A stretch of 64,000 nucleotides of DNA, taken from assembly GCA_050084515.1 (NCBI GenBank), contig CM114271.1, positions 20,026,001 through 20,090,000 of the forward strand. Reading direction: 5' to 3'. The notes beneath the pieces are model-generated. The model made no database searches. It was not told the DNA's origin and was given only the letters and a program-made list of their open reading frames with translations. How positions within the stretch are numbered: position 1 is the first letter of the stretch; every line of letters begins with the position of its first letter. This stretch comes from Blasia pusilla (lineage: Eukaryota). Positions 9,473-57,345 of this stretch are shown here, one piece after another. The position numbers and the translations under genes are program-made.

Positions 9473-10682
9473 TCTTGTTCTGCAAGCTCTTTCTTCACTA
9501 AGACTTTCTTTCTTTCTTTTACTACATGTGTACTAGTCAAAGGGCAGAGAATCCGTGGCTTCATCTTCTGCAAATGGTTGCGTAGAGTCCTTGCCTGTGT
9601 CTGAGCAGCGGGGATGAGAGCCGGCTACGAATTTGTCCTCCGATTTTCAGGCCCAGGTCCCATGGAGCTCCATGCGTCGGTCGGCGTAGTACTCTCCTCA
9701 TCTGGAGTCTCCCGATATGAAGACTACCTCCCCAACCTCCCCCGCATCAGGAGAGGTGGCTGTGCGCGGTGGAAATCGCCGTGGATTTCCACAGGGCATA
9801 GCGGCGCTCCAGCCGGGAACGGGACCGAATCCTGTCAGTGCGAGGATCCCAAAAAGAACTTCTCCTTCTGCTGTTCGCTCGCCAATTCCCTTCTCTGGAT
9901 GCTTTCGGCTGAGATTCCTGATTTCTTTAGGATTGGACGGATGGACCTCGTCCTCGGCTCTCGCTTGCTTGATTGCTTGCTTGCATGCGAGGAACGGAGA
10001 GAAAGTGGAGGTGTTCCCCCCCCCCATCCCTCCCTCTCTCTCCGGCCCAATGTTAGCGCGACGACATTCTCTACGCCGGAGGGGCGTCGAGAATGTCGTG
10101 GGGTTCCAGCGCGCACGGGGGAGGGGGCGCCGTTTCCATCAGCACGAATCCGCTCGTCCTCCATTCTTGCTTGCCGCCATGGATGGTAGCGCCATGTAAT
10201 CCGCCCGCTCTGCAATACAGATGTGAAGAACTCGCAGTCTCTGGCGCCGACCTCCGCGTGTGCATTGCACTCCCTTTGCTTTGTTTTTGCGTCCCTTCTA
10301 TTTCTGCTCTCCATCGCGATTTTCTGTGCACACCCCACCCCTTCCATTCCTGCTCTCAATCCGGAATTCCCGTGCCGCTTCCATTTCCGCTCTCGCTCGC
10401 GAATTTCTGTCTGCCTGTGTCTCGTTCCGCCGTCGGTCTCGATTTCCGTGTCAATTGCTTTTGCTTTCTTGCGCACGCCGCGTCCTCACCATCCCGTTCG
10501 CTCGCTCGCCTCAGCGGTCGAGTGGTGGAAGGCCATTTCTATGTGGGGATGGCGGTCTCTGCTCCGATTCGCGAGCGGTGAGAAGCGGAAAGGAAAGCGT
10601 TGCGATGGGAGCGAAGTGGAGGGAGGAGGAAGGAATGAAGGCTCGTGGGCGGTCGTATATAGTATTAGCATTATTATTGTTA

Positions 10683-11810
10683 TTATTATGCTTTCCTTGC
10701 GAGTTCTGTTGGGGGCTTATTATGCTTTGCTTGTGGGTTCAGATGGGGCTTATTATGTTTTTCTTGTGAGTTTCTTGGGGGCTTATTATGCTTTGCTTGT
10801 GGGTTCTGTTGGGGTCTTATTATGCTCTGCTTGTGAGTTTCTTGGGGGCTTATAGTGCTTTGGCTGTGGGTTCTGTTAGGGGCTTATTATGCTCTGCCTG
10901 TGAGTTTCTTGGGGTCTTATAACGCTTTGCTTGTGGGTTCTGTTGGGGGCTTATTATGATCCAAAGGCTTGTGGGTTGACATGGGGGCGGATTATGCTTT
11001 GTTTGAGTTTCTTGGGGGCTTGTTATGCCTTGCTTGTGAGTTTCTTGGGGGCTTATTATGTTTAAAAGGCTTGTAGGTTGACATGGGGCGAATTATGCTT
11101 TGTTTGAGTTTATGGGGGGCTTGTTATGCCTTGCTTGAGGGTTGGATTAGGGGAGTATTTTGCTTTGCTTGTGAGTTCTTAAGGGGGCTTATTTTGCTTT
11201 GCTTGGGGATTTTGTTTTTTTTGTTTTGCTTTGCTAGTGAGTTCTGTTGGAGGCTTATTACGATTTGTTTGTGGGTTCTATATGGGGGGTTTATGATGCT
11301 TTGCTTGTCAAACTTATCCCTTTTGAATTCTATTGGGGGTTTAGTTTAGTCTCCTTATGAGTTCTATAAGAGGATTATAATGGTTTGCTTGTCGGTTCTA
11401 TTGGGTGTTTATTATGCTTTGCTTGTGAGCTCTATTGGCGGCTTATTATGGTTTGTGTGTGGGTTCTATATATAGGGGGTTCATTATGCTTTGCTCTTGG
11501 GTTTGATAAGGGGTTTATTGTGCTTAGCTTGTCGGTTCTATAGGATGTTTTAATGCTTTGCTTGTGATTTCTTAAGGGGTATTATTAGGCTCGCTTTGTG
11601 AGTTATGTTGGGAGATTATATGTGCGTCCTATAGGGGGCTTATTATACTATGCGTTCAAGTTCTAGTGGTCATTCATTTTACTGTGCGTGTGAGTATTGG
11701 GGATTCATTATGCTTTGCTTGTGACTTCTATAGGGGGTTTATTTTGCTTTGCTAATGAGTTCTGGATGTGGCTTATTTTGCTTTGCTTGTGAGTTCTATA
11801 TGGGGCCATG
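10683..11810. repeat. Minisatellite, ~33-37 bp unit (GGGGCTTATTATGCTTTGCTTGTGRGTTYYT...), degrading rightwards
   Basis: Many tandem copies of the GGGGCTTATTATGCTTTGCTTGTG core. Confidence 0.92.
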
Positions 11811-15871: not shown

Positions 15872-18800
15872 TTAGCTCATGGGCGACACTTCGGCGGCAG
15901 AGCTTGAAGGAGGGGTCTGAGGATGTGGTGAATCTTCGCCTATACCGAACTCCTCCCACATCGCGTTCGAAGCTTTTCCATCACGTCAAGGTGGACGCCG
16001 CAAGCTTACTCCAGCTCAAGAAACATGAAGCGAACTAGCTACAAACGCTACGGCAGGGACAAAAACAACTATGGGAAGGGTAAACATAGCCACGCCCACA
16101 AAAACATTCAATCATTAGAAACTACACTAAACAGGAGAAAGGATACGATCGCTCCTCCACATGTCAGTTATCCCCACACCGGCATCCGATAGCAGCCAGT
16201 AGTCGGTGTCCGTCTACAAAACATCCCAAGGGAGCAATAGTCAGGAGCTTCTACGTTTGATGGCGGTTCCACTAGAAGATTGATCAAAAAGCAGACCACC
16301 ATGAAGACCCAAAACGGATGGTCGCTCGGCGAACTTACATTCACTTCGGCTGGCATTATTCTCATAATCCCACCAACAAAATCGTGAGGACTCGCGGGTT
16401 CCGAACTTGGCGAAGGTGCCTCTTGCTGATTCCCAGACCCCAGGTCTGATAAACGCTGGACATCGGATTGCAATCCGCCAGGAGCCTGGGTAGAAACGCC
16501 AGACTGACTCTGATTCGCCTCTGGCTGAATCATCTCCATTGGCAGCTCCGTGTTCATTTCCTCGAACTTCTCTTCGAATCGACTGCGACAAGGGGTAAAT
16601 CCAAATCAAGTTAACAAACTTCCGTAAGAGACGCTCAGGAGAAGGAGAAAAACACCGTTCCAGGACGGTGCAAGCAGACCAGAGGACAGGAAAGACCTTT
16701 GGAGGACGAAGAGGATCACTTCAGTGGGTGAGGCAAAATTCTCACTACATAACTAACCTCACAAGATAAACATCGATGGGACCCATGGTGCTTCGGAGCA
16801 GAATTTGATATCGCCTTTGGGGATACTCCACAGCCTGCGATAAATCAATGTCAGCTTCCACTCCAACCCTGTGATGTAGACAGCACTTTTCAACCGACGG
16901 AACTCAACACAGCGTATTGAAACGTAAAATGGTAGCCGGAATACGAGGACAAACAGTGAAAGGCGGCGTTATACCTCATCGGGATCAGGAACTTCCAGAG
17001 TTGTACCGTGTGGTGCTTTGATCGCAATCAGAGTCTCGTTCTGTGAAACGACGGTGGTCATGACTCTTCATTTACTCATTTTACCACTTACACACCCCAC
17101 TATGGCACGCTTCAGGAGATTGCGAAGAAAAACTAGGGATCAATGCATGGACGTGCACGCACACAAACAAATGGCGGGTCGAATGGATTTTCCTTCGCCC
17201 GATTTGGCTAGACATAGTAAAATCGTTTATCTAGAAATGACGGACGTGTTCCTGTACGAGGGAGTAAACACTTACGCGGATATTTGAGACTCACCTGAAA
17301 ACATGGCAAACTTTTGATATCATCTTCGGTGACATACAGCCATCTTCAATTGTTCGAAGTTAAGGTTTCAAAGACACTCCATAGGAGAGAACTGAAAACC
17401 CGATACCATATCACTAACGACAGTGGGAAGGAGAAAAGAAAAGCAACAGCTTGATTTAGGGAAAAACTGGCTTCGTAGGATACTGCTTGTTATTCTCATC
17501 TTCACTTAGGATCCGCAATCGCTCTCTCATATCCCTGCAAGACCCAACGTTGCAATCAATCCCCGATCCATTCCATGAAACCGAACCCTCCCAAAGAGTT
17601 CTCAATCTAAATCGGTTTTGACCTAGCGGACAGGTTTGACCCAGGAGGAACGCATTGGATCCATGTTGGGATACACCAGCTGTGGCCATATCCCCGTCCA
17701 CAGGTTTACTCCAAGAACTCTCATATCAATTACATATACTCAGAGAGGGACGACATATCTCCTCTCAAGACCCACAACCAGCTTATTGTACCGTAAGGTA
17801 CCTCTTATGCAGGATTTTAAAATGTACCTTATGTTTTCATCTAGTCGACGCTCTTCCAACTGCAAGTCCTCAACCTCACCCTGCCAAATTCTAAATCATC
17901 AGCATGTTGATCTCGTTTTCTGTTGACATGATGCTCTGTGTATAGGTTAGGTATGAACCAGAAGCGCTAGACAAGTCCATGACGACCCATGAATGATCTC
18001 CAACGACCATATTGGGAACATTAACCCTAGTTTTATTCAACAGGCACGTTCGCTTTGAATTTTATTTCACTATTGTAATGCAAACAGCGAAAATAGGAAT
18101 ACGAGCTGACAAGCCTACGATAACAGCCCAATACCTGGAGTGCGTTCACGTCATCTTTCCCTTCACCGGGCCTGGAGACACCGAGTCCTCTGCAACACGC
18201 ACAAATCGGGCCATTACTTCACAAGCTTGACCTAGTTAACGCAGGAGCTCAACTGGTGCAAACAACTGGCACAATCATCTGTAGGATCTGCAAAGTTACT
18301 CACTTCCAACGGATGCGGTTCTTAAGCTTCTTCTCTATCAACCCGATTCCTTCAAGCACATTTGTGATGTCATATATTCGTCGCTTTTGTACCTGTAACA
18401 TCAAAATTTTGTTCGACTCAGTGAGGAGAGACTTCACAGTGTGGTCAAGTCTCTGGCGACAGGGAAAACCCAACAACTCCAGACATGTGATATTTATCCC
18501 AGATTCAATATCTACTTGACGGCGATTTTGAGCTACTACATGAGGATTGGATGTGAGAGAGGCCGTCCACCCACACGTAATGTATCGGCAGCCTTGTTAA
18601 GATCCAGGACCCCATCTTCAGCTTGTTTAATGAGGTCTATGAACTTTTTTGTCAGCAGCCCTGTTTCAGAAAAACGTTTGCTAGCGTAAATTCAAAGCAA
18701 CGGACAAACACCAAATCTGAGTAATTTAAGATTCGCGAATGCTTCATCAATTTTGCAAAGGTTGACTGACATCATACCAAGAGAACTGTCGTATCGGCAA

Positions 18801-23032: not shown

Positions 23033-25702
23033 ATATATGTCGCTCTCTCATGTGACCGGAGGGAGGGGGTGGGGGGTCTTGGAGCCGCGATCAACACAGC
23101 CATCTCAGCGGGCGCAAGTGGTCCGGCGGGCGATGCTTCCCGGCACCTCACGCCGGCGGATTCATCCACGGGCGCCCAGCGTCCCGCGCTTTTTCTACAC
23201 CACTAGCGCTCAAGCGCTGGACAGATGGACGCTGCTCTGCCTGCCACACAGGCCTGACCGTCAGCTCGGATCTCTGTCCGCCAACGACAGATCCGTCCGA
23301 TCCGCGCACCAGGAACAAGTCACAGCCGGCCGATCAGACAAGATAGACTTCCACCACCGGCTATCTTTCCCCCTCCTCCTCTTCCACAGAGTCCGCACGG
23401 TCCCTGTGAACCCCCGCTACTTTAGATAGTTCCGGTTACTTCCGCTCCGTCCCTACCTCTCTCCCTCCCTCCTTCCTCCAATCCAAACGTGCCACCACTG
23501 CCTTTCATGACTCACGCATTGGTCGGTGAATTCCACCCAGTTTACATTAATGATTTCATCAATCAATCAAATGCCTTCCCAAATACACCCCATGTTCGTT
23601 CTGCCCTACTTTTCCCTATTTTATTTCCTTCTTATGGAAGCTCCTCATTTTTATTAATAACAATTACCAACTAAAACCTCCTATAAATATGCGTGTGTCC
23701 GAAGACGAGGAGCTCCATGGCAGTGATGGCACCACACTCCCCATCCCCTCCCATCCCATCCCATCCCATCCCATCCATCCATCACCAATCACCATACGTA
23801 CAGAGCCGGTAATACCCACTCCGGCATTCTTCGGACAACGCAAACAAACCGGGAGTTACGGACGGACGGACGGACTATCGACTTAAGTAAGCACCGTGAA
23901 TATGAGGTAAGTTCCCGTCCGGAGCGGGACGCATGTCCGTTGGTCCGCTGCCACTGAACGAGAACGCGGTCCCGAACGGGCAGCCATGAAAGAAGAACTT
24001 ACGCAGGTGCCCTCCAATGGGAAGGCAGGAAAGACAAACTTACGTAGTGTCCCAGATGGACGTATGAGGGTCCAGCATGCCGGGAAAGATGGATGCGCAT
24101 CCCATCTGTCCACTAATGCAGAACTGACCTAGTAGAGTCCGAGGGGAACGTACGAGTGTTGTTGAACATGTGGGGGAAGAAGACGTAGGACAAAACTCAG
24201 AGGGGAGGATTTGCTTCGTATTTTATGTACCCGCCAAGAAAGATGTACATAGGCTATGGTAGGACCGTGGAGGGTAGGCTGGTGCGATGAGAAAGAAGGA
24301 TTCCTCGTTTTGTTTTCTTTACACAACAAATACGGAGATCAGAGCCAATGGGAGACCGGCACAACGTGGTTGTTAGTTCTTAGGAGGAAAATATTTAAAT
24401 TTTCATTTAGAACAAAAAAAACCTCTAAGGAGTGAGGTAATAAAAGTGATTATTTATTTCATACCCCATCAAGACAGATGTGCTTAGGGTAGGATTAGAC
24501 TTGGAAGGTAGTATGGTGCTATGTTTCTTTTCTCTTCACACCATGTTGAATATAAGGCCAATGGGAGAAGAGCTTTAAATTGGTTGTGAGTTCTTAGAAG
24601 AAAATCCTTATGAGGCCCTTTAAGAGGGGTGGGGGAAAAAGTCATTATTAAACGTGTGGAGGACATGTGGATCAGGGTCTGGGGAGTTTTTTCGTGACAA
24701 CCGGTACATTTCCGGTCTCTACAAACCCGAGCGGCAATTTTCAAAGTTTTCTTCATTCCAGCCGGCAAAGACAGATCTGAATCGAAGGACACCCTCCTCG
24801 AGCCCTCGGTTTTTTGAATCAGCGGCGACCTGATTTGGCAATTCTCAAATTCTACCGGCCAGCTCAACATGTAACGCAGGTTCTCCTCGGACGTTGATGT
24901 GGATAGCTTAGATGGAGAGGGGAAAAAATGGGGAGTCCCAACAGGGGCCGTGACAAATCTAAGGCCCTTTAAGAGGGGGGGAAGAAACCAACGTGCAACC
25001 TTCAATTCATGGACGAAGAAGACGAGTTAGGTACATTGGAGCATAGATGCTGCGACTCGGGTTGCTGAGATAATGTCTTCCAAAGTACTAGTTGGAATTG
25101 TATATGTGTAGAAATATTTTTGAAAAAAATATTGAGCCATTTAGTATGTATGTACTTAAATGGTAAAAGCTGAAGCGCACATGACGTGGTATTAACGATA
25201 GTGTGGATCTGCCCCACGAGTAAATCGCACACGTTAAGAAGAGTCCAATGTATGCTATTGCATTTGACTCTTCTTATCCTGCAATTTACTCATGCACCTC
25301 ACAAAATGAAGTGTGTGACATGGCAATGCATGAAACAAACGGTAGTGGAGCGAAGTAGGAAGCTCCTCAAAACTTGAGCATACGAAGTTTGTTTCAAAGA
25401 GGTCTAGCTAAAAGTATGGTATTAATATCATCGTAGAAGACACTCAATGATGGAAGCTTGGAAAGCAAGCTTGGTTTATTCTCAATGTAACCCTTAATGT
25501 TTCTTGAGAAGTCTCCAAAGTAACCCCTACCATCCTTTAATTTCTAATTTACATCATCTAGTCTAGATGTGCTAACCCAATTCCCTTCTTCTGAGTTGTC
25601 CTGCTAATCCACATCGTCATACAACATACATCGCTGACATACCATACTCACATACATACATAACATAGACGAGAGCATCCACAAACACAAGTGTACCACA
25701 AC

Positions 25703-26070
25703 TGAAATCCGTGAAAGACCTGCTGTCATAAAACACGTATAGAATCACATACAATCGAGCCAAACCCACTCCACGATAGGAGAATCCATGTCGAAGCTTG
25801 CGGGAATCACCATAGCCAAGAGCTCTACTCACTACCAAGGCTAACTCCCAACGCAACAGGCTCAACTCAAAGAACTAACTGTTCTTTGAGTGCACTCCAC
25901 AATATATCCTCCAACCTAAGAGCGGGCCCTACTGGAAAAGTCACCCTCAACATAGTAACCCCCAACCCTATGTATGAAACCGCATCTCTACCTATACACT
26001 ACGGCCCTACATAAGGTATGGCCTCTACTAGCACACTATACTCTACGACATAATCCGTATGGTCATGACA
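25703..26070 (-). repeat. Terminal repeat A2 of copy 1 (LTR-like, TG...CA, ~368 bp)
   Basis: Near-identical to 37126-37492. Starts TGTCATGA on the minus strand. Confidence 0.93.
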
Positions 26071-26334
26071 GTTGTCGTGTGAATCCACATCGTTGACATA
26101 CCATACTCACATACATACATAACATAGACGAGAGCATCCACAAACACAAGAGTACCACAACTCGCCCCCCTAACTGGCGGTTAGTTCCCTCTAACTCCTA
26201 GGTAGCCCTATACATCTACTACATGCTATACACCTTCGTGGGTGCACGAATTAGAAGGCCGGGTGCTAGGTTGCCCCATCGTTAGTCGCACATCTGTAAT
26301 CCATATCATGCAAAGATCAAGTCATCTACCTCTC

Positions 26335-27610
26335 CTAAGTACATCGAGGACGAACCCACCTTCAAGTAGGAATAACATCCATACGTGGAGTCAAACACAT
26401 CATGTGCCAACCCCTAGAACACCGATCACACACCAACATATGGACTGCGTAACCAGCAGACCCACACACGCACCTCAAGCTAGCACGAATCATGGCTAAG
26501 CTTGGGTCAACAGTACCATCCACATTTGGAAGATGACATGGCGCACAATTACGCACATGGTCCTTCCAAAAAATTCCATCACGACCCTCCAACATGAGAA
26601 CTCCATAAGCTAACACCTCGCGCACTCGTAAAATAGTGCGGTCTACCGTCACATCCAACATTGTCGGTGCAATCTGCTGCAAATAGACATAGTCCCCCAC
26701 ATGGAACCTATGAATCGATGGTCGATAACCTCCATCCCGAATGTTTGCATACCGCAACGTATCCCTGTGTTGAGCAATGGCAAGATTCTCAAAGGCCGTT
26801 GGCATAACTCTCTGAAAGAGCTCTGCCCACTGAGAACACACTCTCATCCACATCTCTGGATCATCAAGGTTCACCACCTCACTAGACTCGACGAATTGCT
26901 GCTGGCAAGTCTGGATCTCGGCCGTATAACAGAAAATAAGGTGAGAAGGAAGCCAAGGATGCTTAGCGACTGAACCTATATCCCATGGCTAACCATGGCA
27001 ACTCAATATCCCAGTCTCCAAGATGCCCCTTCTGTAGGCCATACTTGCCCAATGCCCTCTTCACCGTCTGAACCACACGCTCAGCCAAACCATCCGCCTC
27101 TGGATGATCCCGAGACGTGGTCCGATGATCAATCAACGCCTTGTCACACAAGACCTGAAACTCACCCTGAAACTTTGTACCCTTGTCGATCAGCACTTCA
27201 CCTGGTGCACCAAAATGACTAAGCACTCTATCAAGAAACGCATATACCGTTACCTCACTTGCCTTGTCAGGTAATGCCACCAACTCAATCCACTTGGAGA
27301 AGTGCTCCACCATCACCAACACATATCGATGATGTCGTACAATCAACGGTAACGGTCTCGCAAAGTCCACACTCCAACGGTAACCCAACCCTATAATAGG
27401 CAAGGGGTGTAATTGTGGTGTAAGGGCATTGAATGATGCCCTCACCCGGTCACAAACCATACAACGTGACACCAACTGCTGCACCTGAGTATGCATGCCA
27501 CGCCACCAATACTGACCAAGGAGTAAGCTATACGTACGCTTTACCCCAAAATGTCCCAACTCCTCATGGGCGTGTCGCACAATGCGCTCTCGATGAGCCA
27601 AATGCGGCAC
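26335..27610 (-). pseudogene. Integrase (HHCC zinc finger + DDE core) with C-terminal PHD finger, copy 1
   Basis: HAHEELGHFGVKRT...CMVC, WSVDFARPLP, VEHFSKWIE, VLIDKG and DHPEADGLAERVVQTVK, followed by CVCGS...MLVCDRCSRGWHMMCLTP...W...RC. Confidence 0.9.
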
Positions 27611-27613
27611 TAC

Positions 27614-29446
27614 TCATACTCTACCATCCTCCCACACACAGAGAATATGTGTTCCCTCCAATTGATACCTCTTAGCACGTTGAAGAACACGGTCTTGCTC
27701 CTTGGCACTCACTATGCCTGGCACCCTACTGGTCCATAGGAACTCCAACACCAACGCATCATCATGAATATCACGCTGATCCGTACCACCATCTCCAACC
27801 TTAGGATTTGAAGGCTGGCCATCTACCCTCTGACTATAGTAAGATGTCATGTGGTCCTCCATACTAGAGTCCACCCCTAACCAACATAAAAAGGCGGATG
27901 CATGCCCACATGGCACCATCTCATCATCAACCTCGCCATGCCATCTAGCCCCATTTGCATCCTCTTTGCTAGTACATGGGTTCCTACTCAACCCATCAGC
28001 ATCAAGGTTGGCAACTCCAGGTCTATGTACCACCTGGAAGTCATACTCCTGTAAGATAAGATCCCACCGTGCAAGCTTCCCTGTAAGCTTGTCAGACTCC
28101 ATCAACCACTTGAGCGGTCGTGATCAAGTAACAAGGGTAAAGCGTGTGCCAAACAAGTAACACCTAAAGTGTGCTATAGCCCACCTCTTGCCAAGCACTC
28201 TCCCTCATATGAACTATAGCGACTCATTTGCATTATTCGAACGACTTGCATAGGCCACCACAAACTCCATGTGCTCATCATCATGTTGTGTCAACACCGC
28301 TCCAAGTCCCAACCTACTCCAATCAGTGTGTAACTGAAATGGACGCCCTTTGATAGGTCTCCTCAAGATAGGTGCCGTCACCAACAGGGCCTTGAGCTCC
28401 ACAAAAGCTCTCTCTTGATCATCTCCCCAGTGCCACTCCTGATCTGATTTCAAAAATTGGTTCAAAGGCTTTGCCCTAGCACTAAATCCCTTCACGTACC
28501 TCCAATAGTAGTTCGCCAATCCCATGAATGCCCGAACTCTACTCACATCTACCGGACGAGGAATAAGTGCAATAGCCTCCACCTTTGCTTGCTGAACTCC
28601 CAAACCACCTGGATAGATCACATGACCCAAGTACTCAACATCCTCATGGAAGAACTTACACTTTCCTGGATGCAAACGTAGACCATGAGCTTTCAACCGC
28701 TCAAACACAATCTGAAAATGTATTTGATGCTCCTCCACCGTATTACTGAACACCAAGATATCGTCAATGTAACACCGAAAAAAATCCAACTCTGCTAGGA
28801 TCCTGTCCATCACTCTCTGAAACTCGGCAAATGCATTCTTCAACCCAAAGGGTAAGAATTTCCACTGGTACAAACAATCCTTGCCATGAGAGTTGACACC
28901 CCAAAATGTTGTCTTGGCCTTGTCACTCTCTCGAATTGGCAACTGATGGTATTCTGCCTGAAGATCCAAAGTACTGAAAATCTTTTCCTGTCCCACCACA
29001 TCAAAGATATTCTCACGTGTAGGCATGGCATACCTATCGGCCTTGGTCTACCGATTGATAGGACGGTAATCTCCACACATCTGCCTATCCGTGTAGTTGC
29101 CATGCACATCCTTTTTAGCAAGCATGACAGTGGCTGATGCATACTCTCCATGTGACAACTCCACTAATCCAGCTTCCAAAAGGTCCAACGTCCTACTCTG
29201 AATCAGGTCCCTCTCCATATCACTATATTGGTAGGGACGACGGAAGATTGGAGAATCACTAGCCAAATCAATCCGTATACCGGATCCAACCAAAGCACCC
29301 AACTCCTTCATGCTAAAGGCAAAATAACTCCTATAAGCACGTAGGAATTGAGTCAAGGGTCGTTTCTTACCTCCCCTAAGCTTGGGCCCAAGTAATAGCT
29401 CCCAAGTCTCCTTCACTGGCACACTAGAAGGAGAGGACGACGCCAT
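27614..29446 (-). pseudogene. Reverse transcriptase and RNase H, copy 1 (frameshifted)
   Basis: MCGDYRPINR, FSTLDL, LPFGLKNA, YIDDILVFS, VEYLGH, FQLHTDWS, VVAYASRS, GKLARW and NLDADGLSR. Confidence 0.93.
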
Positions 29447-29710
29447 TGGCTGCTAGGCAACCCCCTCACAAGATGGTACACCCTTAGCTACATCATCATC
29501 TGAGCAAATAACTCCTCCACCAACATGAGCAACCAACTCCACATGCCCAGCCATTAGATCCCATTTACTCCAAGGATGCAAAATACTATTCTCCTCGCCC
29601 CCAGCCAATGTCTCTACCGTCCCGGTAGCCATCGAGCTCATCACAAGGGGTGGAAGACCCATAGACATAGTCCAAAGTCAACGTTGCTCGGCCATCTCAA
29701 GACTCAAAAT

Positions 29711-30921
29711 TCAGGTCAAACAATTCAAGTCCATGGCCTGACCCAACACATGACATGGTGAAGCCTCATAAATGGAAGCAACCGCTGTCACACCAGTAGC
29801 AAATCCCATCGCACGCTCTCTCTCATCAGCGTTAGGCTCAACCAACTGTCGCACATAAGAATCCCATACAAGCCCGGGATCACCTTCCCTGTAGGCTTGT
29901 GACGAGGGAAAACTCACAAATGTGGGTAGTGCCATCCTAAGCTGTCCCACACGGTTCACCACTGCCATGGATGACCGATCAATAACCCTCACCACCTGAG
30001 AAAGTCGCCCAATATCCAAGATACTATCCACTGTAAGGTAAGGATCCCGCTACAGTGCATCATATGCTCGACGTAGAACCTCCCTAGGCAATAAGTTTGT
30101 CCATCACAAGCATGGACGATGTGCACGCGAGCCAACTCGCACAGCATCCAACAACACCGTTGGTCCAATCCAAGACCGCATCTCATGAACAATCACCATC
30201 ATCAGGGTCCGAGTGTCACCCAACAATGGAACATTCTCCAGAATGTAAGCTAGAGCACGTGCCTGATGAACCTGAAGATATCGTAATGCCCGTAACATCT
30301 CCCACCTGTAGAACCTCCCTAGGCAATAAGTTTTTCCATCACAAGCATGGACGATGTGCACGCGAGCCAACTCGTACAGCATCCAACAACACCGTTGGTC
30401 CAATCCAAGACCGCATCTCATGAACACTCACCATCATCAGGGTCCGAGTGTCACCCAACAATGGAACATTCTCTAGAATGTAAGCTATAGCACGTGCCTG
30501 ATAAACCTGAAGATATCGTAACACTCGCAACATCTCCCAAAACAATCGAGACCTAGGGTCGTGTAATCCCTCACCACGACCAGCACGTGTATGACCCTGA
30601 CATGGCCATCCAGCAATCACCAAATCCTCAGGACCAACCCTCTCAAGGTCCGCCCCCCAACAATGCAATGTGTGACGGCAAAGCACGCTGGTACCCACGA
30701 ATAGCTGATGGCGGCAACAACTTAGGATATCTCCGCATCAACTGACCAATATGTCGGGATGAGACTCTCTGGGTTGTCTCATCTCGCTCCATATACACGT
30801 ATCTCCGCATAGGAATACCGGCCTGCAACACTGCAGCCAAACTAGTGCTAATCCCACCAAAGAGATCTAACACACAAATGCCCTCCGGCGGATACTTCCA
30901 TACAATGGGTGTAGTATCCAA
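29711..30921 (-). pseudogene. C5 cytosine DNA methyltransferase domain within pol, copy 1
   Basis: Motifs in canonical order: I VLDLFGGI, II YMERDE, IV DLVIAGWPCQG, V GLHDPRSRLFWE, VI YILENV, VIII LDAVRVGSRAHRP, IX ERERAMGF, X VLGQAMD. Confidence 0.9.
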
Positions 30922-31259
30922 AGGGGATAACCCAACTGGACTAGAAGTAGGAGTCCATCGTGGGGCCTCCTCTTCCTTGTGAGGTATAACAGCCTCACAC
31001 CAAGCCTCCTACACTAGGCGATCAGCCTCCTGCCGTAGTGCACCGCCTGAACTCCAAAGTGGCACATCCAACAATGAGAATGCCACTGTTGCAAAACTAG
31101 GGACCTCCTCTACCTCCTCATGTACAAGAGAATCCATAGTAGAAAGATTACCCTCCAAAAAGTCTCATGGCCAAGTGACTACTCCACTAAAACCAGCCAC
31201 AAATGCTAACACCGTTGGGGAAGACCCTCCTGGTCGAGCCCCATAAATAAATCTCACAG

Positions 31260-33771
31260 GAACCTAGCTCATACGTCCATCCCCCGACTGCCAACCAGGT
31301 CTATAAGATGTTGTCTCAGTCCAGTAGTCCATCTGAAAACCCATCGGGTACAATACTGCTCCTCCAACTAGTACATCATACGACTTGGCTGATGTGACCA
31401 CTATAGGTACTCCCAACCAAGAGCTATCGGTTGCATGATCTGATCTCAACTATACAGACAACTTCTCCCGTGTCATGAATTGAGACCTATCATTGGCTCC
31501 TCCAAGTGATGTTTGAATCTGGAATGGGCAAGGCTCAAGCTCTGACCTCCAAATACCCAAACCAATACATGTCGCCTTTCACAACATCAAAGGTTGGGCA
31601 CCAGAGTCTAACAAGACTTTATCTGGTCTATACACTTGTCTTGTAGGACTCACCAATCGAAATATCCCACTCCGGTTGTCCAACATACATACACTTGGTG
31701 TAAGCCTCTCACAATCAATGGCTGGCCGGGCTGGTAATGCATCCATCTTCGCCGCTGCAGCTTACCAAGTAGCCCTCGTTCTCAATGCTACACCTGACAT
31801 AGAGGGTCGCTCCACCACAACATCTTCATCCACCTCAGCACGTGTAGCAGTAACACCCCCACGTTCACACAACGTGGCTGCTAGCTGAAATACAAGAGCT
31901 AAGTCAACTCCTAAAGCCATCAGCTCTGTGGCCGAAAACAATGGGGATCCCAACATTGAAGTTGCCATCCGCAATATTGCACTAGATGTTGCATCCGTGT
32001 CTACTACACGCAATGTAGATGCCTCAATCCCCAGTGTAGGCTCAATAGGCTGCATAGGAACCATGGATAGATTCCTAAGCATCTCAGACAACAAGAATGA
32101 CTGGGGAAGCCTAGCCTGCCTCCCAGCCTCACCCCACTGTGGATCCAACTCCACAGTAGCACCAAGTGGCTCTGACGCTCGAGTGGCTCCTCTCGTAATT
32201 GCAGCTGATGCCTCAACGTGTGTTGCACTCGCCATATAAGAGAAATCATCCTCTCAATAAGAGGTGGAAGCCCCTGCTGCCAAACTTGCTCTATGCTGGA
32301 TACCAGCCATAGTAGCCAACTCGCCTCCAATCGCTCAATCCTCGGCAGACCATATAGCGATCGTGTCGTAGTGGTAGGGGTAGCCACCGTAGGCTCTCCA
32401 ACCACTGATCTACCTCTATCACCCCTACCACGTCTACCACCTAGGTGTCTCGGAGCTACTCCACCACGGCCGCGGACTGATCTCAACTCTGGATGAAGAT
32501 CAAAGCAACGCTCTCAAGGATGACGTGATCTCCCGCAATGATCACACTGAGTTGGGGCCGACTAAGGCCCATCCTCCAAAGTCCGTCTCCCATCCTCTTG
32601 GGGAAAAAACCTCCTAACATGATCATCTCCACATGTCTAACATGATTGTGCTTGCTGCGGGGCAGCAAATGAAGGCAATGGTCTCTACGCAAGTGTCCCT
32701 CTAGGACCTGACTGAGGTTGTATGTACCCCCCATGACTCCCACTACTACTACCACCACCACTACTACGAGACTGTGAGGTGGACTGCTAAACACGAGAAG
32801 AAGTAGTTGTATCCCTATTGAATGCGGATGTCACCACTCTCTCCTCCACCATGTTAAGCTCAATCTTCTCAGATAGAGCAAACACATGGGTCAATGTGGA
32901 TGAATCATCACTCATAAGATTAGCATCACGTACCCTGCGGCGCAACTCTCTGTCCAAGATCCCATACCAAAACAATATTTTCTGGTATCTGAAACATATT
33001 GAAGCGTCATATGCGACGCTTGATTTCAGTCACACCCTAGGTAACTGAAATCAAGCGTCGCATACGAGTGTATGCCTCATGAAGACTCTCACCAGTCCTT
33101 CGCTCAAATTCTTGAAGACTCCTCAACTTCTCTGTCTTCACTCCCTGATAGTTCTTCTTCAACCTCTTGAAGAACTTTGCAATCAGGATGAACAATGGTG
33201 GGGCACTAGTACCTCCATTGGTACCCCCACTCCGGCTCGTACTCGTACCACTCAACGTCAGGTTGGTTGGCATAGTAGGAGCACTACTACCAATACCACC
33301 ATGGGTGATAGACACATAGCCTGGAGACCAATATTGTCTCCACGCCTCAATCTCAACAATATGGTACTTCCTAAACTTATGGTAATCATCCATGGGTGGT
33401 CCCTCCAAGTGCTGAAACAACCCCTTCCAAGCCAAGAAGGGTGTAAACAACGTGGCGTTCCGCAACATCTGCATATCACACCACGTGTCAAACTCCTGAA
33501 GGAAGTCCTCCAACTCAATGGTGCCCACTGCACCCGAGTATCATCGTGGGCCCTTCATGGCCCCATATATCCCGTCCATGTCCCAAATCAATGGAACTGT
33601 AACACTCGATAACAACGTAGAAGTCTCGGTGTTTAGAACACCATCGTCCTCCTCTTCATCAACCGTCGAAAGTGGAAAAGGTAGTCGATACCTCAATCCA
33701 CTCCATGTAAAACCACCACTGTCTGCACCACGGTCCCCAACCAGACCATCAGACAGCTCCATGATGACCAA
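31260..33771 (-). pseudogene. Gag (CCHC knuckle) and aspartic protease, copy 1
   Basis: Gag fragments ELEDFLQEFDTWCD and RRTGESLHEAYTRM. Knuckle CDHCGRSRHP*ERC at about 32500-32548. Protease VLLDSGAQPLML at about 31582-31620, and YDVLVG. Confidence 0.85.
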
Positions 33772-33994
33772 CGCATATGCCGCACCAGCACCAAATCACC
33801 ACCACCAGGTAAACAAATGACGTCGATGTCGGTGTACTATTCTAGCTCTACTAGCTATGGGTGTAGGCAACCTAACATGTCATCACCACAAGAAGCCTCC
33901 CACGGTCTACTGGTCATCACTCCAGCCTCACTACCGGTAGCACACACGCTCTGCCCTCGTTGGACCTAGCCTGCGCCGTATGTCCTAAGATTAT

Positions 33995-34704
33995 CGTAGA
34001 AGCTTTTTATTTGGATGATTCTATTTTTTGGGTATTCCATAAATTAGACTAAAAAGCAAACAAGGAACCTATTATGCCACATATCCTTTCGAGATTAACT
34101 CAATTTAGCATTTATTTTGTACTTCCTTTTATAGGTGCTACTTTTCTTCATCATGTTACTATTGGGCAAATAGCCTCAATTGGTTTTTTCTTTTGTTATT
34201 ACGCCCATGCTTGTCAAAAAATTAGAAACCAGATTAAGGAATTTTCGGGATTCTTTATTAATTTTAATTGGGTAAAGGCTACTGCTGAGTTTTCCATATG
34301 CAATCCTACTTGGATTTTCCCAATTATTTGGTGTTTGATTAGTGGGGCCTTGTTGTTATTTTTTCATTTTATTATTATCAAATTCATGGGAGACTTTTCA
34401 TATTTAGAATCTTTCTGTGGTGTGCTTTGTTTTTTCTTCTTTTGTACGTTGTTTTTATCATTTCATCATAGGCGCGATAGGTTAGCGAGGCAAAAAATTT
34501 CTTTTTTTGTTTTTTCACAAGCAGAGAAGACGCGAGCTTATTATATCGTCATTGAGAAGAAATAACTTGAATTGGAGTAGATTTTTTCTTGTTTGCGCCT
34601 TACCGAGTAGACTGATGACTGTTGGTCACGACTTTCGAAAAGCCTTTATCCCTTTGTCTTTTTTTCATGGCCAGATTCATGGTCAAATCAAAAATTGTTT
34701 TTGA
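33995..34704 (+). pseudogene. ccmFC: ccmFC-like fragment (mitochondrial cytochrome c maturation), probable NUMT nested in copy 1
   Basis: GDFSYLESFCGVL...F...RRDR and ALPSRLMTVGHDF recall plant mitochondrial CcmFC. The segment is T-rich and frameshifted, with composition distinct from the flanking element. The foreign segment may extend to about 35750. Confidence 0.72.
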
Positions 34705-37125
34705 TTTGACCAACCCCCGTAAGATACATAGGCCCGTCCAAGGATTTCAATGGTTTTTTTTGGTTTCAAATCCTTATAATGGGTTTTTTAGTCGAACGTC
34801 GGGGACGGATTGTAGTCCCGGGATATTTTAATAGAAGAAACCGTTTAGGAATACTTAGTATTGACTATAATACACGCATACGTATATTAATAAGTGTAGA
34901 TGAAATCACTCCAATTTGTTCGGTAGTCAGTATATTTCCATTGGCCGGCTGGTGGGAACGCACTACTTGACAATATGCTCTCGTGTTCTGACGAGTTTCC
35001 CCTGAATATGAGGTATCACAACACTTATTTGCTCACAATCGTTATGTGGGTACGCTCAAGCGTTGGGTATGTGGAGCTGAAAGATCATTCACAAAATAGC
35101 TTTAGGTTTATACCTAAACGAAACACGGGGCAATGCGCAGTTGGAGCAGCTTGAAAATCTAAAAATCCTTTTGTTGATACGATTGTGGAAGGAACCAATG
35201 CAGGTTTAACTCGAGACTCTGGCGGAGGCCTTTCCGTCACTGCTTGGTGTAGACTCTATATTCTCACCGGATAACGGGCATAATATTTACCACCCTCCCT
35301 TTGGCACTCTCCACCAGGCCCAGAGGAGGGAAATTCCTGAACTCACAGCCCAGGTCGAGGTCCAGGCCTCCTATTTTATGGATATTATAGTTGGGTTATA
35401 TCCATGTAAACATCGTTCCGTGATTTTGTGAAAATCGATGTTTCCGCGTAGAATAAGCGGTGGTGGGGCGAAGACTACGGCGCCCGGCCTTCGAGGGAGA
35501 GGTGCTACGCACTTTGTGGCCCCAGAGGACACGAGACTATAGGGAGAGGTGCTACGCAGTTTTGAAAGTCTTAATAGAATCAGGGATACCTGGCGAATAT
35601 TCTATGCTCACTGGGTTTCCCACCCCTTTGTGGAACTAATCATGCCTTTATGCCTATTGTCGTAGAGGTTGTTTCTCGTGTGGAAGGGCTCTCACTCAAC
35701 GGATCAAAGGTACGCCCTGCCTCAGAATACCTTTTAGTAAACTCTGGCAACTCCTTGAACTTATTAATGGAAATGCCTAGGCCTTTCCTCTCAGCTTCAA
35801 GAATACATGAGTAAAACTACTCTGGAAATCAACGTCAACCCTAACAATGGGCGCTCAAGCAAGAAGCAACGATGGAGGGGATCCAAACACAAGAAGTCCA
35901 ACGACAACCCTCCAATCGCAAATGGAAACAAGGTAACACAATCCACCAAATGTGGCGCCCCCTGAATCCACAGAACCCACCACACAATTCTAACGCAATA
36001 GCTACTCCGCCGCGGGTCGATGACGTGCTAGTCGCACTCGCAATACGTGAAAATATCACCTACATGAACAGGCTACACCGTACTATGCGCTAGAGGTCCA
36101 TCAACCGAAAACCCGAGATGCATAAAGCGCCTAACACATCTCCGAACAACACCAAATGAGCTGCACAGTGTGTACACTGGCATAGTTAAGAACTCAGCAG
36201 TTAAGTGTCTTCCAGGCAAAATAGCCCAAAGACGGGTGACCACTTATGCAGCACTCGACTCACAAATCCTGCAAAAAATCCCTCACGCCCAAGCAACCAA
36301 GCTTGCTCCTTACTCTTTACTCTGCCTCTCACGCCCATTCGTCCAGAGCTACCACAAGTTGCCTTGAAGCCTCAAAACGCCGAGAAATACCATGCTTCAC
36401 CATGATTTGCTATGGAGAGAGGTCCATCCAGGGCGCTCCCAACGGGATAGGCGTATTCAACAACGGACGAATCACCAACCAACCAGCCCCTCCGATGTGC
36501 TGTCCACCATAGCCAGACCTTGAGCTAGTCCACAAAATTTTGATCAGCAATTACTCCACAAATCCTCAACTAAAATTGAATTTGTTTCAACCAGAATTCA
36601 ATTGGCCACCATACCTATCTCTCCACAAAAAATCAGCTACAACCGAGCTCTGTACTCTGAGCTAAAAATCAGACAAACTTGCTATCCATACACCTCTAGA
36701 ATTGTAAATCCGACATCGCTTCCGCCTAGATTCATGCATTCAGAAATCCGCAACGCTCCACACACTCAAGCAGATAGCTTCATATGAGATCAAAATACAG
36801 GCAGCAAAAGGAACCTCTCACCCGATCTGGATGAACTTCAATAGAGCTTCCGCACTCCAAGCTCTCCACATCATAAAACCGTCGAACACGAACCATGATC
36901 TTCAATCCTTAATAACTTCCAACTCCCTTGACAAAATCCGGCAATCTAAAGCGCGTTGGAAAGCTCTTAGCAAGGCGCTTCTTTTCCAAGCAACCTTGCA
37001 CCATATTCCCACCTCCAACATATGCCACAAGCCACAAACATCCACGGCTGAGTACACAATCTGCCCTAACCAGATCCTACAGATCCACGATCGAAGCTAC
37101 CATCGATCTACTCTAGTTCTTTGAG

Positions 37126-37492
37126 TGAAATCCGCGAAAGACCTATTTTCATAAAACACATATAGAATCACATACAATCGAGCCAAACCCACTCCACAAT
37201 GGGAGAATCCATGTCGAAGCTTGCGGGAACCACTATAGTCAAGAGCTCTACTCACTACCAAGGCTAACTCCCAACGCATCAGGCTCAACTCAAAGAACTA
37301 ATTTTTCTTTGAGTACACTCCATACTATATCCTCCAACCTAAGAGCGGGCCCTACTGGAAAAGTCACCCTCAACTGAGTAACCCCAACCCTATGTATGAA
37401 ACCGCATCTCTACCTATACACTACGGCCCTACATAAGGTATGGCCTCTACTACCACACTATACTCTATGACATAATCCGTATGGTCATGACA
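37126..37492 (-). repeat. Terminal repeat A1 (5' end) of copy 1
   Basis: Near-identical to 25703-26070. Confidence 0.93.
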
Positions 37493-49712: not shown

Positions 49713-51524
49713 ATCTCTTCCCCTCGCTCCTCACCGCCTCGATCGCCACACAATCCACCCCCACCCCCACGCACAACACAAACAATACAGCCCCAGAGAT
49801 TTCTCCTCCTTCTTCCCGTCTGCGCTCGATTCTGCCCGCCTCCTGCGATCGGTTTTCCGCGGCAGCCCACACAAATAGACGATAGCGCTGCGAACGAGGG
49901 AGCTCGAGAACAAAGATGCGCTCCCCCGCCCTCCCCTACCCTACCGAGCTACCCCACCAGCGCGCGCCTCGTGGCTTCCCGTAATTCGTGAAGACCGCAG
50001 TGGCCTGCCACACATACGCTCCAGGTTGTCAACCACGCAGGCGAGACCCGCTTTGATCTAAAACCGTCCATATGAGGATCGGACGGTCCATCGAGACTCG
50101 GCTGTGGGGACTGCGTCCGTCCAATGGTACTCACTCGCTTCACAACCACGTAGGGCTAACTTACGGCGACGAATAGCCGTCGACTGTTTTCGATCTTGCG
50201 GGTATGGGCTTTTACTAATTTTGGGAGTCGAATCCCCGTAGTAGTGAGCCCTTCGTCATCTGGCCCAATCTACGAGCATCAACTTATCGCGCGATAAACA
50301 TCCAGTCAGCAAACTCAACCCTAGTGGTCAACGCAGGGAGCCTCTGAAGCTCGATCCTGACTGTGCATCTGAGATCCAGCCATTACCGAACGTCGATTCC
50401 CACCAGTGCTAGGGGAAGAGCGAGTTAACGTGACTAACCATGGTAAGACGTCAACCTCGTTGATTAGAACTATGGTACTGTGTTCGGACTTTTCTGCTAC
50501 CAGATTAAGATGATATTAAGTCGCTCAAATGCGTTCGTACGATCTGAAATCTTAGAAATTCACCACCGTCGATTACTATTGCCAACTTAGTTAGACCAGT
50601 AGTAATAATAATAAGACATGCATACAGTATAAGAGAATCTTCTAATGAACTATGTGAAGCACCCGGTTCAGTTAGCTCACTACGTTAGTTCTGGATACAG
50701 TTGATCTCGCCTTCCCTATCTTCGCAACGCGGTGATGGTGGACCCGGCCCAGCCACGTGCTGATGCTACAGTAGCTGGCCTCATCCCTTTCGGAAGTGGA
50801 TAGGGGAGACAAGGAGAGGGCCCACAAGCCCACGTGGGACAGAATCCATCCGTTGGCCCGTCTTTTTCCATGGTAAGAAGTAGGGTTTTGGAGATATTTC
50901 CATATTTCTTAATTAATTATACATTTTTATGAAAATATAAATTTTATTTGAAAATGTCATTATTGAGCGAGTACTTTCATTATGCTCATCTCCGCCCCCA
51001 TTCTTACAAGTGTCTTCTCCCCAATTCCTTGAGAAAATATCCCAATGCCACACGAACATTTCATTTGCTTTAGGAAAAAGGGTTTCTTGATTATAATTTA
51101 AAACTTAATTTTATCTGTTGGCATTTTTATGGCTCCGGATTCATTTTTATTGCCATTGGGTCATGTGTTATATGTATTATAAATGTAATCTGAGTGGAGC
51201 GAGTACTTTCATTTGGCAGGTAAAATTAAGACCACTATTTTGTGGAAGTTGTGTAAGAATCTTACAATGTACACACGCTTTTGGATTAGTTTGAGCATTT
51301 TCCACATACACGCAACTTCTGTGTATTGATGGACTAAAGGGAGTATAATGCTATGTTCACTATTTAAACAAGCCACTAATATGCGAGACAAGGCAACAAC
51401 ATACATGCAATAGGACTTTCAAAAGTATTCTCATTTCTTTATTCCTTGCATAGTTTCACACATAGCTAAAGGTTAACATCCACATATGGAGATATTTTTT
51501 CAGTTTTCTCTACTCGTACTATTG

Positions 51525-51987
51525 TGTCATGGTAGATGAGGCGTAGGACGAGATAATATCAAGGCCTTAGAGGGGTATTGTATTTCTCTATTTTGAGAGG
51601 TCATATGTGACATGTTCTTAGGAGGTGACCTATGAGTATAGGTCACCCTTCCCTCCATGAGGAGTGGCAATCTTGGAGAGGTTGACCTTCCCAATCATGT
51701 ATGGCTCCACTTGGACCTATAGGGTCGTTTGGTAGTTGGTCTCATGAGGGGACCACATGTGTAATTGTTAGGGAGCTAGTATGGGTGTACTACAAGTGAA
51801 TAGTGACCTGTTAGGAGGGAGGTGACATGTGTGTACATGCCACCTATGGAGGTGCTTAGGGGGATATACCTCGGATGAAGCTTATTTGGGGCTCATCTCC
51901 TAAGGATTGCAGACCCTTGTTGGGATTCGTGATTTAGAGCGGCTTGCATGTATTGAGCCTGGATTCTCTCTTGAAGAGTGGGCTAGG
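51525..51987 (+). repeat. Terminal repeat A1 of copy 2 (463 bp)
   Basis: Matches 62242-62704 and the copy beginning at 62815. Confidence 0.92.
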
Positions 51988-54920: not shown

Positions 54921-57345
54921 ATGAAATTAGGGGATTCTGAGTTACTCGAAAGGCCACAGAGTGTCGCGAGTGTTCCCCCATCATTGTTGTGGAACATGGA
55001 TGATCGCGATACGTATGGGTCCACGAGGAGACCCCAACGGTTCTCAGGCATGGTGGGAACCATCGAGTTGGATGATTTTATGGAGGAGTTTGATAGTTGG
55101 TGCGATGCACAGAGGATGCGGAACCATCAAAGATTCGACTCTTTTATGGCGTTGAAGGGACTTTTCTGCATTTGGAGGGCTCTCCCATGGATGATTATCA
55201 CAAGTTTCAAATTCTCCATGAGGCGGAGATCGAGGCGTGGAGACTATTTTGGTCTCCAGGATATGTGTCCCTCACAAGGCGTGGGATGTATGATGTGGCA
55301 GCTGCTATAGCACCCACTAACCGCACGGAGGAGACACTTGGAGGAGTTGTTGACCCAAGTCTTACAAGTGTGACCAGCCGCATACCACCAGCGTTCAACC
55401 CGTTGGTCGAGTTCTTACGAGAGTTAGGGAGGAACTATCAGGGGGTGAGGACCAAAAAGCTGAAGTTGATTCATGAGTTTCAGCGGAGAGCGGGAGAGAG
55501 TCTTCGAGAGGCCTATGCACGGCTCCGATGGTTGATTACAGCGACTCAGGGTGTCACAAAGGCACAAGCGGTTCAGTTATGGTATGCAATGTTAGACCGC
55601 AAGTTGCGGAAGAGAGTGCGGGATGCAACTCTCTTACATGTTGGTTCGCCTACTCTCAACTCTGTATTTTTTTTGGCGGAGCGGATTGAGCTCAACATAC
55701 TTGAGGAGAGAGTTTTGACGACAGGCGCGTCATCTTTGAGGGAGACGATACGAGTGATGGTATCTCCATCACTGCTGCAGCGCACTACTCAAGATAGAGT
55801 CATAGGACCGAGGGATATGAGAGGATACCGGGAGCCAGGACCACGATCAATTCAGGCATACGCTAGGCAGTAGGGCTCAGGTATTTCTTGTTGGACGTGT
55901 GGAGGATCACATCGTCAACAAGATTGTAGACAACACAGTGGAGTGCATGTAGCACCATCAACTGTATATGAGGCGGCCGAGGGGAGGCCACCCTTACCTC
56001 AATGTGATCATTGCCAGAGATATGGGCACACACGTGAGAGATGTTTCAAGCTTCACCCCGAGCTGCGCCTAGAGGTAGGTCGAGGACCTGGAGGTGGCAG
56101 AGGACAAGATATAGGAGGTCGAGGATATGGTGGAGGCAGGACCCCACCACCTACCAGAGCGAGTGCAGCACTTGCATCAGAGACAAGTTTGGCGATGATT
56201 GCTCAGTTGGAGCAACACCTTCAGGCTATGACGGCCCAACAGGCATCTACATCACATCTAGGGGGCACGTCGACTTCTGGATCAGCTCAGGCCCTAGATA
56301 TGGTGGGAGGTCTAGGAGGTATGGGATTTTTGTGCAACACCGCACAAGTGGATGCAGATGCAGTGGTTACGAGAGGCGTGGTGAGAGCTTCTCAGCCACA
56401 AGGATCTCATGTGGAGTTGGATCCCCAGATGGGAGAAGCTAGCAGGCAGGCTAGACTTCCCCAATCTTTCACATTGTCAAAGGCTCTTCGGACCCAAGGG
56501 ATGGTTCCTAGAAGGCCTTTGAGGAGTGTTGTTGTTGCAAATGCTGATGGAGTTAAAGGAGTAGGTGAGGCGAGTACGTCTACCAGGCCTATGCAACATT
56601 TGACATAGCCTAACACTGGCACGTTACGAGAGATGGCGACGGCTTTGTGTAGCATCCCATTATTTATGGCCAGAGTTTTGTTGACATGTGGAGGTCCACT
56701 AGTTGAGGTTTTTTGGTTGGCGGCGACGCTCTATGAGAGGAATGAGTTTGGTTCTTCTAGTGTTGAGACTCGCAAAGGAGATGTGGCAGAGATACCCTTG
56801 GAGCAGGTGCTCAAGACGAGAGCCACAGAGAGTTGGCATGCAACAACGGCTAGAGTGGCGGAGTTGCCAGCTAGACCAGTGATAGAGCGTGCATCTATCT
56901 CACCAAGAGTTGTTGTCTTGGACAACCGAGATGGAGTTTTCTAGTTGGTTGGTTCATCCAGAGTTATGTATCGATTGTAGAGAGTGCTACTTGATTCAGG
57001 AGCACAACCCCTTATGTTGGGGAAGGCGGCATGTGTAGTGATGGGATTGCAGAAGTGTGAGATCACTCCATGTCCATTCCAGATTCAGACTTCACTGGGA
57101 GGTACATCCTCGACACAGTTCATGACTCGTGATGAGATTGCAGTGAGGATTTGACCCGATCATCCTACTGATAGTGCGATGGTGCGGACGTGAGCGGTTG
57201 CGATACTGGCCGAGTCTTATGATGTTTTGGTAGGGGCTACCGTATTGTATCCTCTAGGGTTCACACTTGACTTTTGGGAGGAGACAACCTCCTATCGACC
57301 AAGTTGGCAGTCAGGTGAGGGACGAGCCAGTCAGCTACCTGTGTA
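54921..57345 (+). pseudogene. Gag (CCHC knuckle) and aspartic protease, copy 2
   Basis: GTIELDDFMEEFDSWCD, RRAGESLREAYARL and CDHCQRYGHTRERC. Protease VLLDSGAQPLML at about 56984-57019, and YDVLVG. Confidence 0.85.

Follow-up and report, generated by a model that had tools for sequence, protein, structure and literature searches.

The window analysed here is a 64,000-nt stretch of Blasia pusilla DNA, which carries on its minus strand an element, copy 1, that combines the coding region of a Ty3/Gypsy retrotransposon with split direct repeats in the order A1-int-B1-A2-B2, where int denotes the coding interior. The priming signals of this family, namely the polypurine tract (PPT) and a site resembling a primer-binding site (PBS), define one long terminal repeat (LTR), and the integration ends with their target-site duplications (TSDs) define another; the two are different and circularly permuted. 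The best reading, held with moderate confidence as an explanation of the whole, is that a circular complementary DNA (cDNA) would be opened by the integrase of the element at a palindrome inside the LTR. A preliminary description of copy 1 had proposed a non-canonical, possibly circular, DNA intermediate, and this proposal remains the best one. The underlying observation is confirmed, and the earlier interpretation as a whole is partly supported.

Split repeats of copy 1

All coordinates refer to the window, and copy 1 is read on the minus strand. It begins with A1 (37126–37492; TGTCATGA...GGATTTCA), the 5' terminal repeat and left end of the inserted element. After about 11 kb follows the PPT AGGGGGGCGA (26162–26171), which abuts B1 (26073–26161; GTTGTGG...CACGACA). 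A 2-nt spacer, AC (26071–26072), separates B1 from A2 (25703–26070), the internal copy of A with the same start and end as A1. The 3' terminal repeat B2 (25597–25702) forms the right end; it finishes with GGACA and is followed by ACTCAG. A1 and A2 are 94.3% identical over 368 nt, and B1 and B2 are 97% identical over 76 nt, beyond which B1 has a 17-nt deletion relative to B2. Further copies or solo fragments of A or B are absent from the rest of the window. The repeats lie where the preliminary description had placed them, with coordinates agreeing within 1–3 bases, and the B1–A2 junction reads GACA-AC-TGTC as it had claimed.

Read depth indicates that the copy 1 family is highly repeated in the source organism. 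This depth drops to 0.18–0.3 just past position 37496, which lies one to four bases outside the A1 start. Together with the recurrence of A...B-A-B in independent metagenome contigs, the drop at the A1 edge places the split repeats of copy 1 far above chance.

Repeat forms in related loci

A sample of 80 loci was recruited from metagenome contigs with an alignment of the DNA methyltransferase (DNMT) domain that the element encodes. The loci share with copy 1 the start of A, the start of B, the PPT and the sequence after A, and they belong to its family. Three contain a complete A...B-A-B element (L062, L074 and L075), two more provide B-A-B 3' ends (L015 and L059), and in another two B-A is interrupted by the contig end (L005 and L068, the latter identical to L067). 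A lone B followed by unrelated flank occurs in 12 loci, five of which are complete A...B copies (L020, L032, L039, L044 and L077). One locus, L049 (= L051), is rearranged.

The family thus occurs as A-int-B-A-B or as A-int-B, and BA-int-BA was never seen. Paired identical LTRs are not found: the 5' end consists of A only and the 3' end of B-A-B or B, so that the A-int-B copies have no terminal repeats at all. In none of the 22 distinct 5' ends does B precede A1, which sets aside the contrary scenario of the preliminary description, in which both ends carry symmetric B+A LTRs. No locus of the sample has A-B-A ahead of the coding region. The split-repeat layout is a family trait and not an accident.

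A tree built from the final 1.5 kb together with B is star-like, with both forms interspersed (6 changes, against a mean of 5.8–5.9 after shuffling). Which form a copy has is thus decided when it inserts or later, and does not pass down sublineages. The sampled copies are old, with A1/A2 identities of 89–94% and terminal branches of 0.03–0.13.

Two loci show further repeat arrangements. In L068 (15486–15741; also L067), a collapse of the B–A junction by way of a short direct repeat (ATGAC...ATATGT) has deleted the palindrome described below. Both the end of B and the start of A contain this short repeat, which copy 1 also has, with different letters. In L028, a pair of 157-nt direct repeats, 496 nt apart and 87% identical, lies downstream of a lone-B element (16642–17294); its spacing resembles the B1...B2 of a different family.

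Priming signals and junctions

The boundary between PPT and B1 is GGGGGG(C/T)GA followed by GTTG in 7/7 copies, and the PPT also precedes the lone B in 10 of 11 cases. At the other end of the interior, the preliminary description had noted that no TGG-type PBS follows A1, and this holds. Directly 3' of A1 stands CTCAAAGAACTA (37114–37125), which appears not to be of the tRNA type and recurs after A in most related loci. This PBS-like site is complementary to a segment within A1, TAGTTCTTTGAG (37289–37300), with which it forms a 12-bp duplex of -20.4 kcal/mol; 2/300 shuffles are as low. In 12 of the 21 A1 examined, the 9–14 bases 3' of A1 show exact complementarity to a stretch midway through A. 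The duplex reaches 20 bp in L074 and L054 (-25.7 kcal/mol, 0/300 shuffles as stable), and complementarity is lacking in 9/21 at a criterion of at least 8 nt exact. Since the PPT abuts B and the PBS-like site abuts A, the cDNA would read BA-PBS-int-PPT-BA, and the LTR of reverse transcription is likely to be B+A. By this definition, B1+A2 is the sole complete LTR of copy 1.

The inserted copies follow another definition. They begin at the first base of A (TGTC...) and finish at the last base of B (...CACGACA). Where B and A meet inside the element, the boundary is a perfect 10-bp palindrome, GACA-GC-TGTC (GACAGCTGTC). The spacer is GC in 5/7 copies and AC in 2/7, copy 1 among them; it is GT in copy 2 and in RNA reads. 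Both AC and GT differ from GC by a single transition, and with its flanks the spacer gives the general form GACA-NN-TGTC. From its sequence, the palindrome appears to be two integrase ends abutted inside the LTR.

The joint between A2 and B2 is equally regular. It reads TTTCA followed by (G/A)TTGTGG in 6/6 copies, ATTGTGG occurring once, and fuses the last base before the PBS (the U5 end) to the first base after the PPT (the U3 start). It looks like the signature of a 2-LTR circle junction, as blunt joining of the ends of a linear cDNA would give. The PPT and PBS on one side and the integration ends and TSDs on the other define two different LTRs that are circular permutations of each other.

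Integration ends and target-site duplications

For the TSDs, the 4 bases on each side were compared in 10 complete copies, copy 1 included, and in 100 shifted control comparisons. Perfect 4-bp TSDs flank 6/10 copies (AAGG, CATA, TGTG, TGTT, TACA and CACA), with that of L020 counted by reading its A start as TCTC, one substitution away. Three of four bases match in two copies (L062 and L039), and two of four in another two (L044 and copy 1). Among the shifted controls, 4/4 matches occur in 0/100 and 3/4 matches in 6/100. Perfect TSDs occur in both forms of the element. The statement that TSDs are lacking therefore holds for copy 1 (ATTG vs ACTC, even with the right end corrected to GACA) and fails for the family.

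The TGTC...GACA ends and the 4-bp TSDs imply insertion by a DDE integrase and not by a recombinase, and integrase-type insertion at TGTC/GACA is highly probable. The DDE integrase named in the preliminary description is present as rve plus Integrase_H2C2. A search for a tyrosine recombinase, as that description had advised, gave none among the open reading frames (ORFs) of the window in Pfam, and no Phage_integrase match in the six frames of the relative L075 (stops read as X, E<=0.01).

Past the terminal GACA of B2 (GATA in copy 2), the two copies in the window keep matching the B–A junction for 3–5 nt, with ACT in copy 1 (25594–25596) and AC+TGT in copy 2 (63518–63522). Among 18 distinct flanks of relatives, only L048 (ACT) shows such a match beyond the terminal B.

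Transcription

RNA was assessed in two stranded raw-read runs with the same species label. The reads are almost all in sense orientation and cover the element. Their depth falls about 8-fold across A2, from 119–154 at position 76 of A2 to 11–20 at position 349, and it is low over A1 (13–15). Fragment ends pile up at 25909 in one run (29/114) and at 25717 in the other (5/20); the 25909 pile, belonging to one of the two runs, is used solely alongside the depth drop. The fall in depth and the piles imply that most transcripts stop inside A2 and that B2 is not needed in the RNA. The pattern fits a canonical transcript consisting of the 3' part of A, the PBS, the interior, the PPT, B and the 5' part of A. 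It also suggests that B2 is mostly untranscribed, within the limit set by reads that map to both A1 and A2.

Joints from 37492 to 25597 and from 26077 to 25602, found in both RNA and DNA, have the appearance expected of a circle or tandem. They were rejected, as reads across the B1–A2 junction of other copies map alike.

Two internal skips also appear in the RNA reads of both runs. One removes 1,006 nt of the integrase region (26804–27811; 16 and 27 reads), and the other 556 nt from before the PPT into B2 (25652–26209; 10 and 7 reads). They are probably deletion variants among expressed copies, because their ends are not GT..AG on the strand of the element.

Origin of the split repeats

A four-step scheme is the simplest one to account for all junctions. 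Canonical reverse transcription would first produce BA-int-BA, and this linear cDNA would then be circularised. The integrase would cut the internal palindrome after each CA and insert the opened circle. A 2-LTR circle treated in this way would become A-int-B-A-B. The shorter A-int-B might come from a 1-LTR circle, from a double cut, or from a later deletion between B1 and B2. Only A-int-B-A-B keeps a whole LTR downstream, and therefore only this form should yield terminally redundant RNA. Taken by itself, the opening of the circle is somewhat less secure than the scheme as a whole and is put forward tentatively.

Several observations weigh against this scheme. Opening at the second, identical palindrome should yield A-B-A-int-B, though this form is absent from all 22 5' ends; its absence could be excused only by supposing that the 340-bp A repeats collapse faster. 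Neither a circle nor a free A–B junction was directly observed. Every copy examined is old, and deletion after insertion could account for each A-int-B. End-joining usually leaves less tidy products than the precise A–B joint of 6/6 copies. A TSD is lacking in copy 1 itself, and in copy 2 the PBS lacks complementarity to A (102/300 shuffles as good). Finally, the RNA 3' pile at position 162 of A2 lies upstream of the segment complementary to the PBS (193–204) and is therefore a poor fit to a Tf1-style primer taken from the RNA 5' end.

An alternative is replication like that of DIRS and PAT elements, here performed without a recombinase. The RNA would run from inside A1 to inside B2, the B1-A2 template would restore the outer A1 and B2, and the linear cDNA would be inserted by the integrase with no circle. 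The repeat order is the same as the A1-B1-A2-B2 of PAT, Ngaro and Viper, as far as the accessible part of the source describes it (PMC4157794). The uniform A2–B2 joint (6/6) would be expected if it were inherited through RNA, and such replication agrees with the absence of A-B-A-int-B. Given a primer site behind A1 and a PPT ahead of B1, however, any RNA would give BA-int-BA and leave B2 uncopied. The roughly 8-fold fall of RNA depth across A2, with fragment ends piling there, also argues against this route, and the 12 lone-B copies stay unexplained unless deletion is added. Overall, this alternative is unlikely.

Trimming of a linear cDNA would dispense with the circle in another way. The integrase would nick BA-int-BA at the internal CA, at the start of A on the left and at the end of B on the right, and the outer B and A would be lost as flaps to leave A-int-B; A-int-B-A-B would derive from occasional cDNAs with an extra right LTR. 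Infecting phage Mu, which loses its flanking DNA on integration, offers an analogy. In agreement with trimming, A-int-B is the commoner form (12 vs 5–7) and has perfect TSDs (L020, L032 and L077), and the integrase-like inverted repeat TGTC(A/G)TG marks the start of A and the end of B, not the ends defined by PPT and PBS. Yet A-int-B, without a downstream A, would give no terminally redundant RNA, leaving most insertions dead on arrival, and the precise A–B joint would still require end-joining. To our knowledge, no retroelement integrase cleaves hundreds of bases from a DNA end, which also counts against trimming; it is improbable as well.

That copies 1 and 2 are merely rearranged or truncated products of ordinary BA-int-BA elements might be suggested by the missing TSD of copy 1 and by the visible rearrangement of copy 2, with B-like sequence before its A1, but this is extremely improbable and already contradicted by the 0/22 5' ends with B upstream of A1, by 4-bp TSDs that immediately adjoin the A start and the B end, and by the same layout reported for Klebsormidium nitens (PMC5890265).

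The opening of a circular cDNA at the internal palindrome is thus preferred. If it is extended to the evolution of the lineage, the integrase attachment site may have moved from the LTR edges to the internal palindrome, making the 2-LTR circle obligatory for a replication-competent insertion. The family would then be the DDE counterpart of the circle-integrating DIRS and PAT elements, and split repeats would be a general signature of a circle opened inside the LTR, whatever the enzyme. This extension is speculative and less probable than the opening step.

Coding content of copy 1

The Pfam matches on the minus strand follow the order C5 DNA methylase, RVT_1, RT_RNaseH_2, Integrase_H2C2, rve and a C-terminal PHD finger. 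A gag-like region with a broken frame (33037–33593) is homologous to the gag of copy 2. The C5 cytosine DNA methyltransferase domain (30104–31008; PF00145, E 1.1e-08) is also broken; its position between gag and reverse transcriptase makes it a C5 DNMT inside a Gypsy-type pol. Reverse transcriptase and the start of RNase H follow at 28214–29452 (RVT_1 4.3e-28; RT_RNaseH_2 7.5e-18), then the integrase with its H2C2 zinc domain and DDE core at 26963–27613 (Integrase_H2C2 1.1e-16; rve 3.3e-13). The PHD finger (26377–26472; PF00628, 7.2e-06) forms the C-terminal end of pol and is also found in L075. The order reverse transcriptase, RNase H, integrase with an rve DDE core, as in Ty3/Gypsy, is shared by copy 1 and L075. 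Copy 1 belongs to a Ty3/Gypsy lineage with gag, protease, C5-DNMT, reverse transcriptase, RNase H, integrase and PHD finger, and the identity and architecture read here are held with high confidence. In L075, Pfam at E<=0.01 on frames with stops read as X does not list DNA_methylase, though this locus was recruited by tblastn.

The DNMT segment matches polyproteins in which PF00145 is combined with RVT_1 and RNase H, from Marchantia polymorpha, Calypogeia fissa and Sphagnum; more distant matches are full-length proteins with rve, RVT_1, PHD and DNMT. The lineage has its closest named relatives among liverworts and mosses, and the host type is bryophyte-like. A scan of viral contigs with the DNMT alignment returned no relative. 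Chromoviruses have a chromodomain where this lineage has a PHD finger after the integrase, and the PHD finger may target insertion to particular chromatin.

All coding frames of copy 1 are broken. It is a dead, decayed element of about 10 kb plus a nested insertion of 1.86 kb, which lies in the leader (33944–35804, strand unassigned) and is foreign to the family. DNA contigs and RNA reads skip this insertion from 33943 to 35805. It measures 1,861 bp, is low in GC, represents a different repeat and has a depth about 50-fold lower than the family. Within the DNMT domain, a tandem duplication of about 235 bp (30073–30539; 96% identical) is present, at which some DNA contigs of the family skip about 241–267 bp. 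Outside the element, a G/T-rich minisatellite with a unit of 33–34 nt and at least 16 copies occupies 10645–11789.

Copy 2

The second element (51525–63520, plus strand) is rearranged and belongs to a related family. It is about 65–72% identical to copy 1 from gag to PPT, and its gag is followed by CCHC knuckles. It contains three copies of A, two copies of B and a B-like hybrid with 5'-flank sequence. Its A and B segments do not align with their counterparts in copy 1, and copy 2 therefore supports the layout only loosely.

The 60–68 nt preceding its A1 (51457–51524) are found again ahead of the third A (62747–62814), fused there to the first half of B through a common CATAGCTA. In the second A, the sequence breaks off at CTAGG and continues into a remnant of the PPT. 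This copy is either the result of a multi-step rearrangement or a template-switch product with flank-like sequence.

Comparison with known systems

The nearest described element is KnitGypsy-Dnmt3 of the green alga Klebsormidium nitens, with a Dnmt3-type domain in a Gypsy pol (de Mendoza et al. 2018, PMC5890265). According to the legend of Fig. 4c in that paper, its repeats are structured as in a DIRS retrotransposon and its domains are Gypsy-type. As in copy 1, a Gypsy-type pol with a C5 DNMT is thus combined with repeats in the order A-coding-B-A-B. In its accessible text, PMC5890265 analyses neither TSDs, PBS/PPT nor junctions of KnitGypsy-Dnmt3 and proposes no mechanism. No K. nitens protein is among the named matches of the DNMT segment. 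The elements differ in host, which is bryophyte-like here, with relatives in Marchantia, Calypogeia and Sphagnum. The novelty implied by the preliminary description is reduced accordingly: with the 2018 paper, the layout itself is not new, and the element belongs to a known kind. No report of bryophyte DNMT-bearing Gypsy elements with such repeats was found in the literature outside subscription journals. The present analysis adds the liverwort and moss host range, the TSDs, the internal palindrome, the A–B joint resembling a circle junction, the self-complementary PBS and the repeat-less A-int-B form.

Tyrosine-recombinase retrotransposons typically insert without a TSD, and the 4-bp TSDs of the relatives of copy 1 set the family apart from them. 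The order A1-int-B1-A2-B2 is shared with PAT, Ngaro, Viper and TOC1. For PAT, Ngaro and Viper, the available part of one source describes split direct repeats A1-B1-A2-B2 in which the internal repeats pair with the terminal ones (PMC4157794). Unlike these elements, copy 1 has a DDE integrase, TG...CA ends and a Gypsy-type reverse transcriptase, RNase H and integrase, with no tyrosine recombinase found in the searches above.

Canonical Ty3/Gypsy elements share with the family the domain order, the PPT at the 3' repeat, the TG...CA ends and the 4-bp TSDs. They differ in having paired LTRs and apparently also in their tRNA-type PBS; here the integrase ends lie inside the LTR defined by PPT and PBS, and a DNMT and a PHD finger are added. 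The U5-adjacent site complementary to the upstream RNA of the element itself, and apparently not to a tRNA, is comparable with the self-priming mechanism of Tf1 and sushi-type elements. The complementary segment differs in lying about 160–200 nt into A. Self-priming has also been predicted for a plant Ty3/Gypsy clade without tRNA PBSs, according to the accessible part of the report (PMC6317226).

In the textbook view, an LTR retrotransposon inserts linear cDNA through the edges of its LTRs, and circular forms count as dead ends. If circle opening is true, this family would be a natural case of circular cDNA as a productive intermediate for a DDE integrase. It would also account for the evolution of this split-repeat layout in unrelated elements with a recombinase, and software that searches for paired LTRs would miss or mis-annotate this abundant bryophyte family. 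The closest biochemical precedent is retroviral: in the accessible parts of two reports, the integrases of foamy virus and HIV-1 cleave the palindromic LTR-LTR junctions of 2-LTR circles (PMC1905944, PMC1180852). In both settings, a palindrome of two abutted integrase ends would be cut to give insertable ends. The retroviral palindrome is made by the joining of LTR edges, whereas the palindrome of this family is a permanent part of the LTR interior, and the A–B joint would travel along as passenger sequence.

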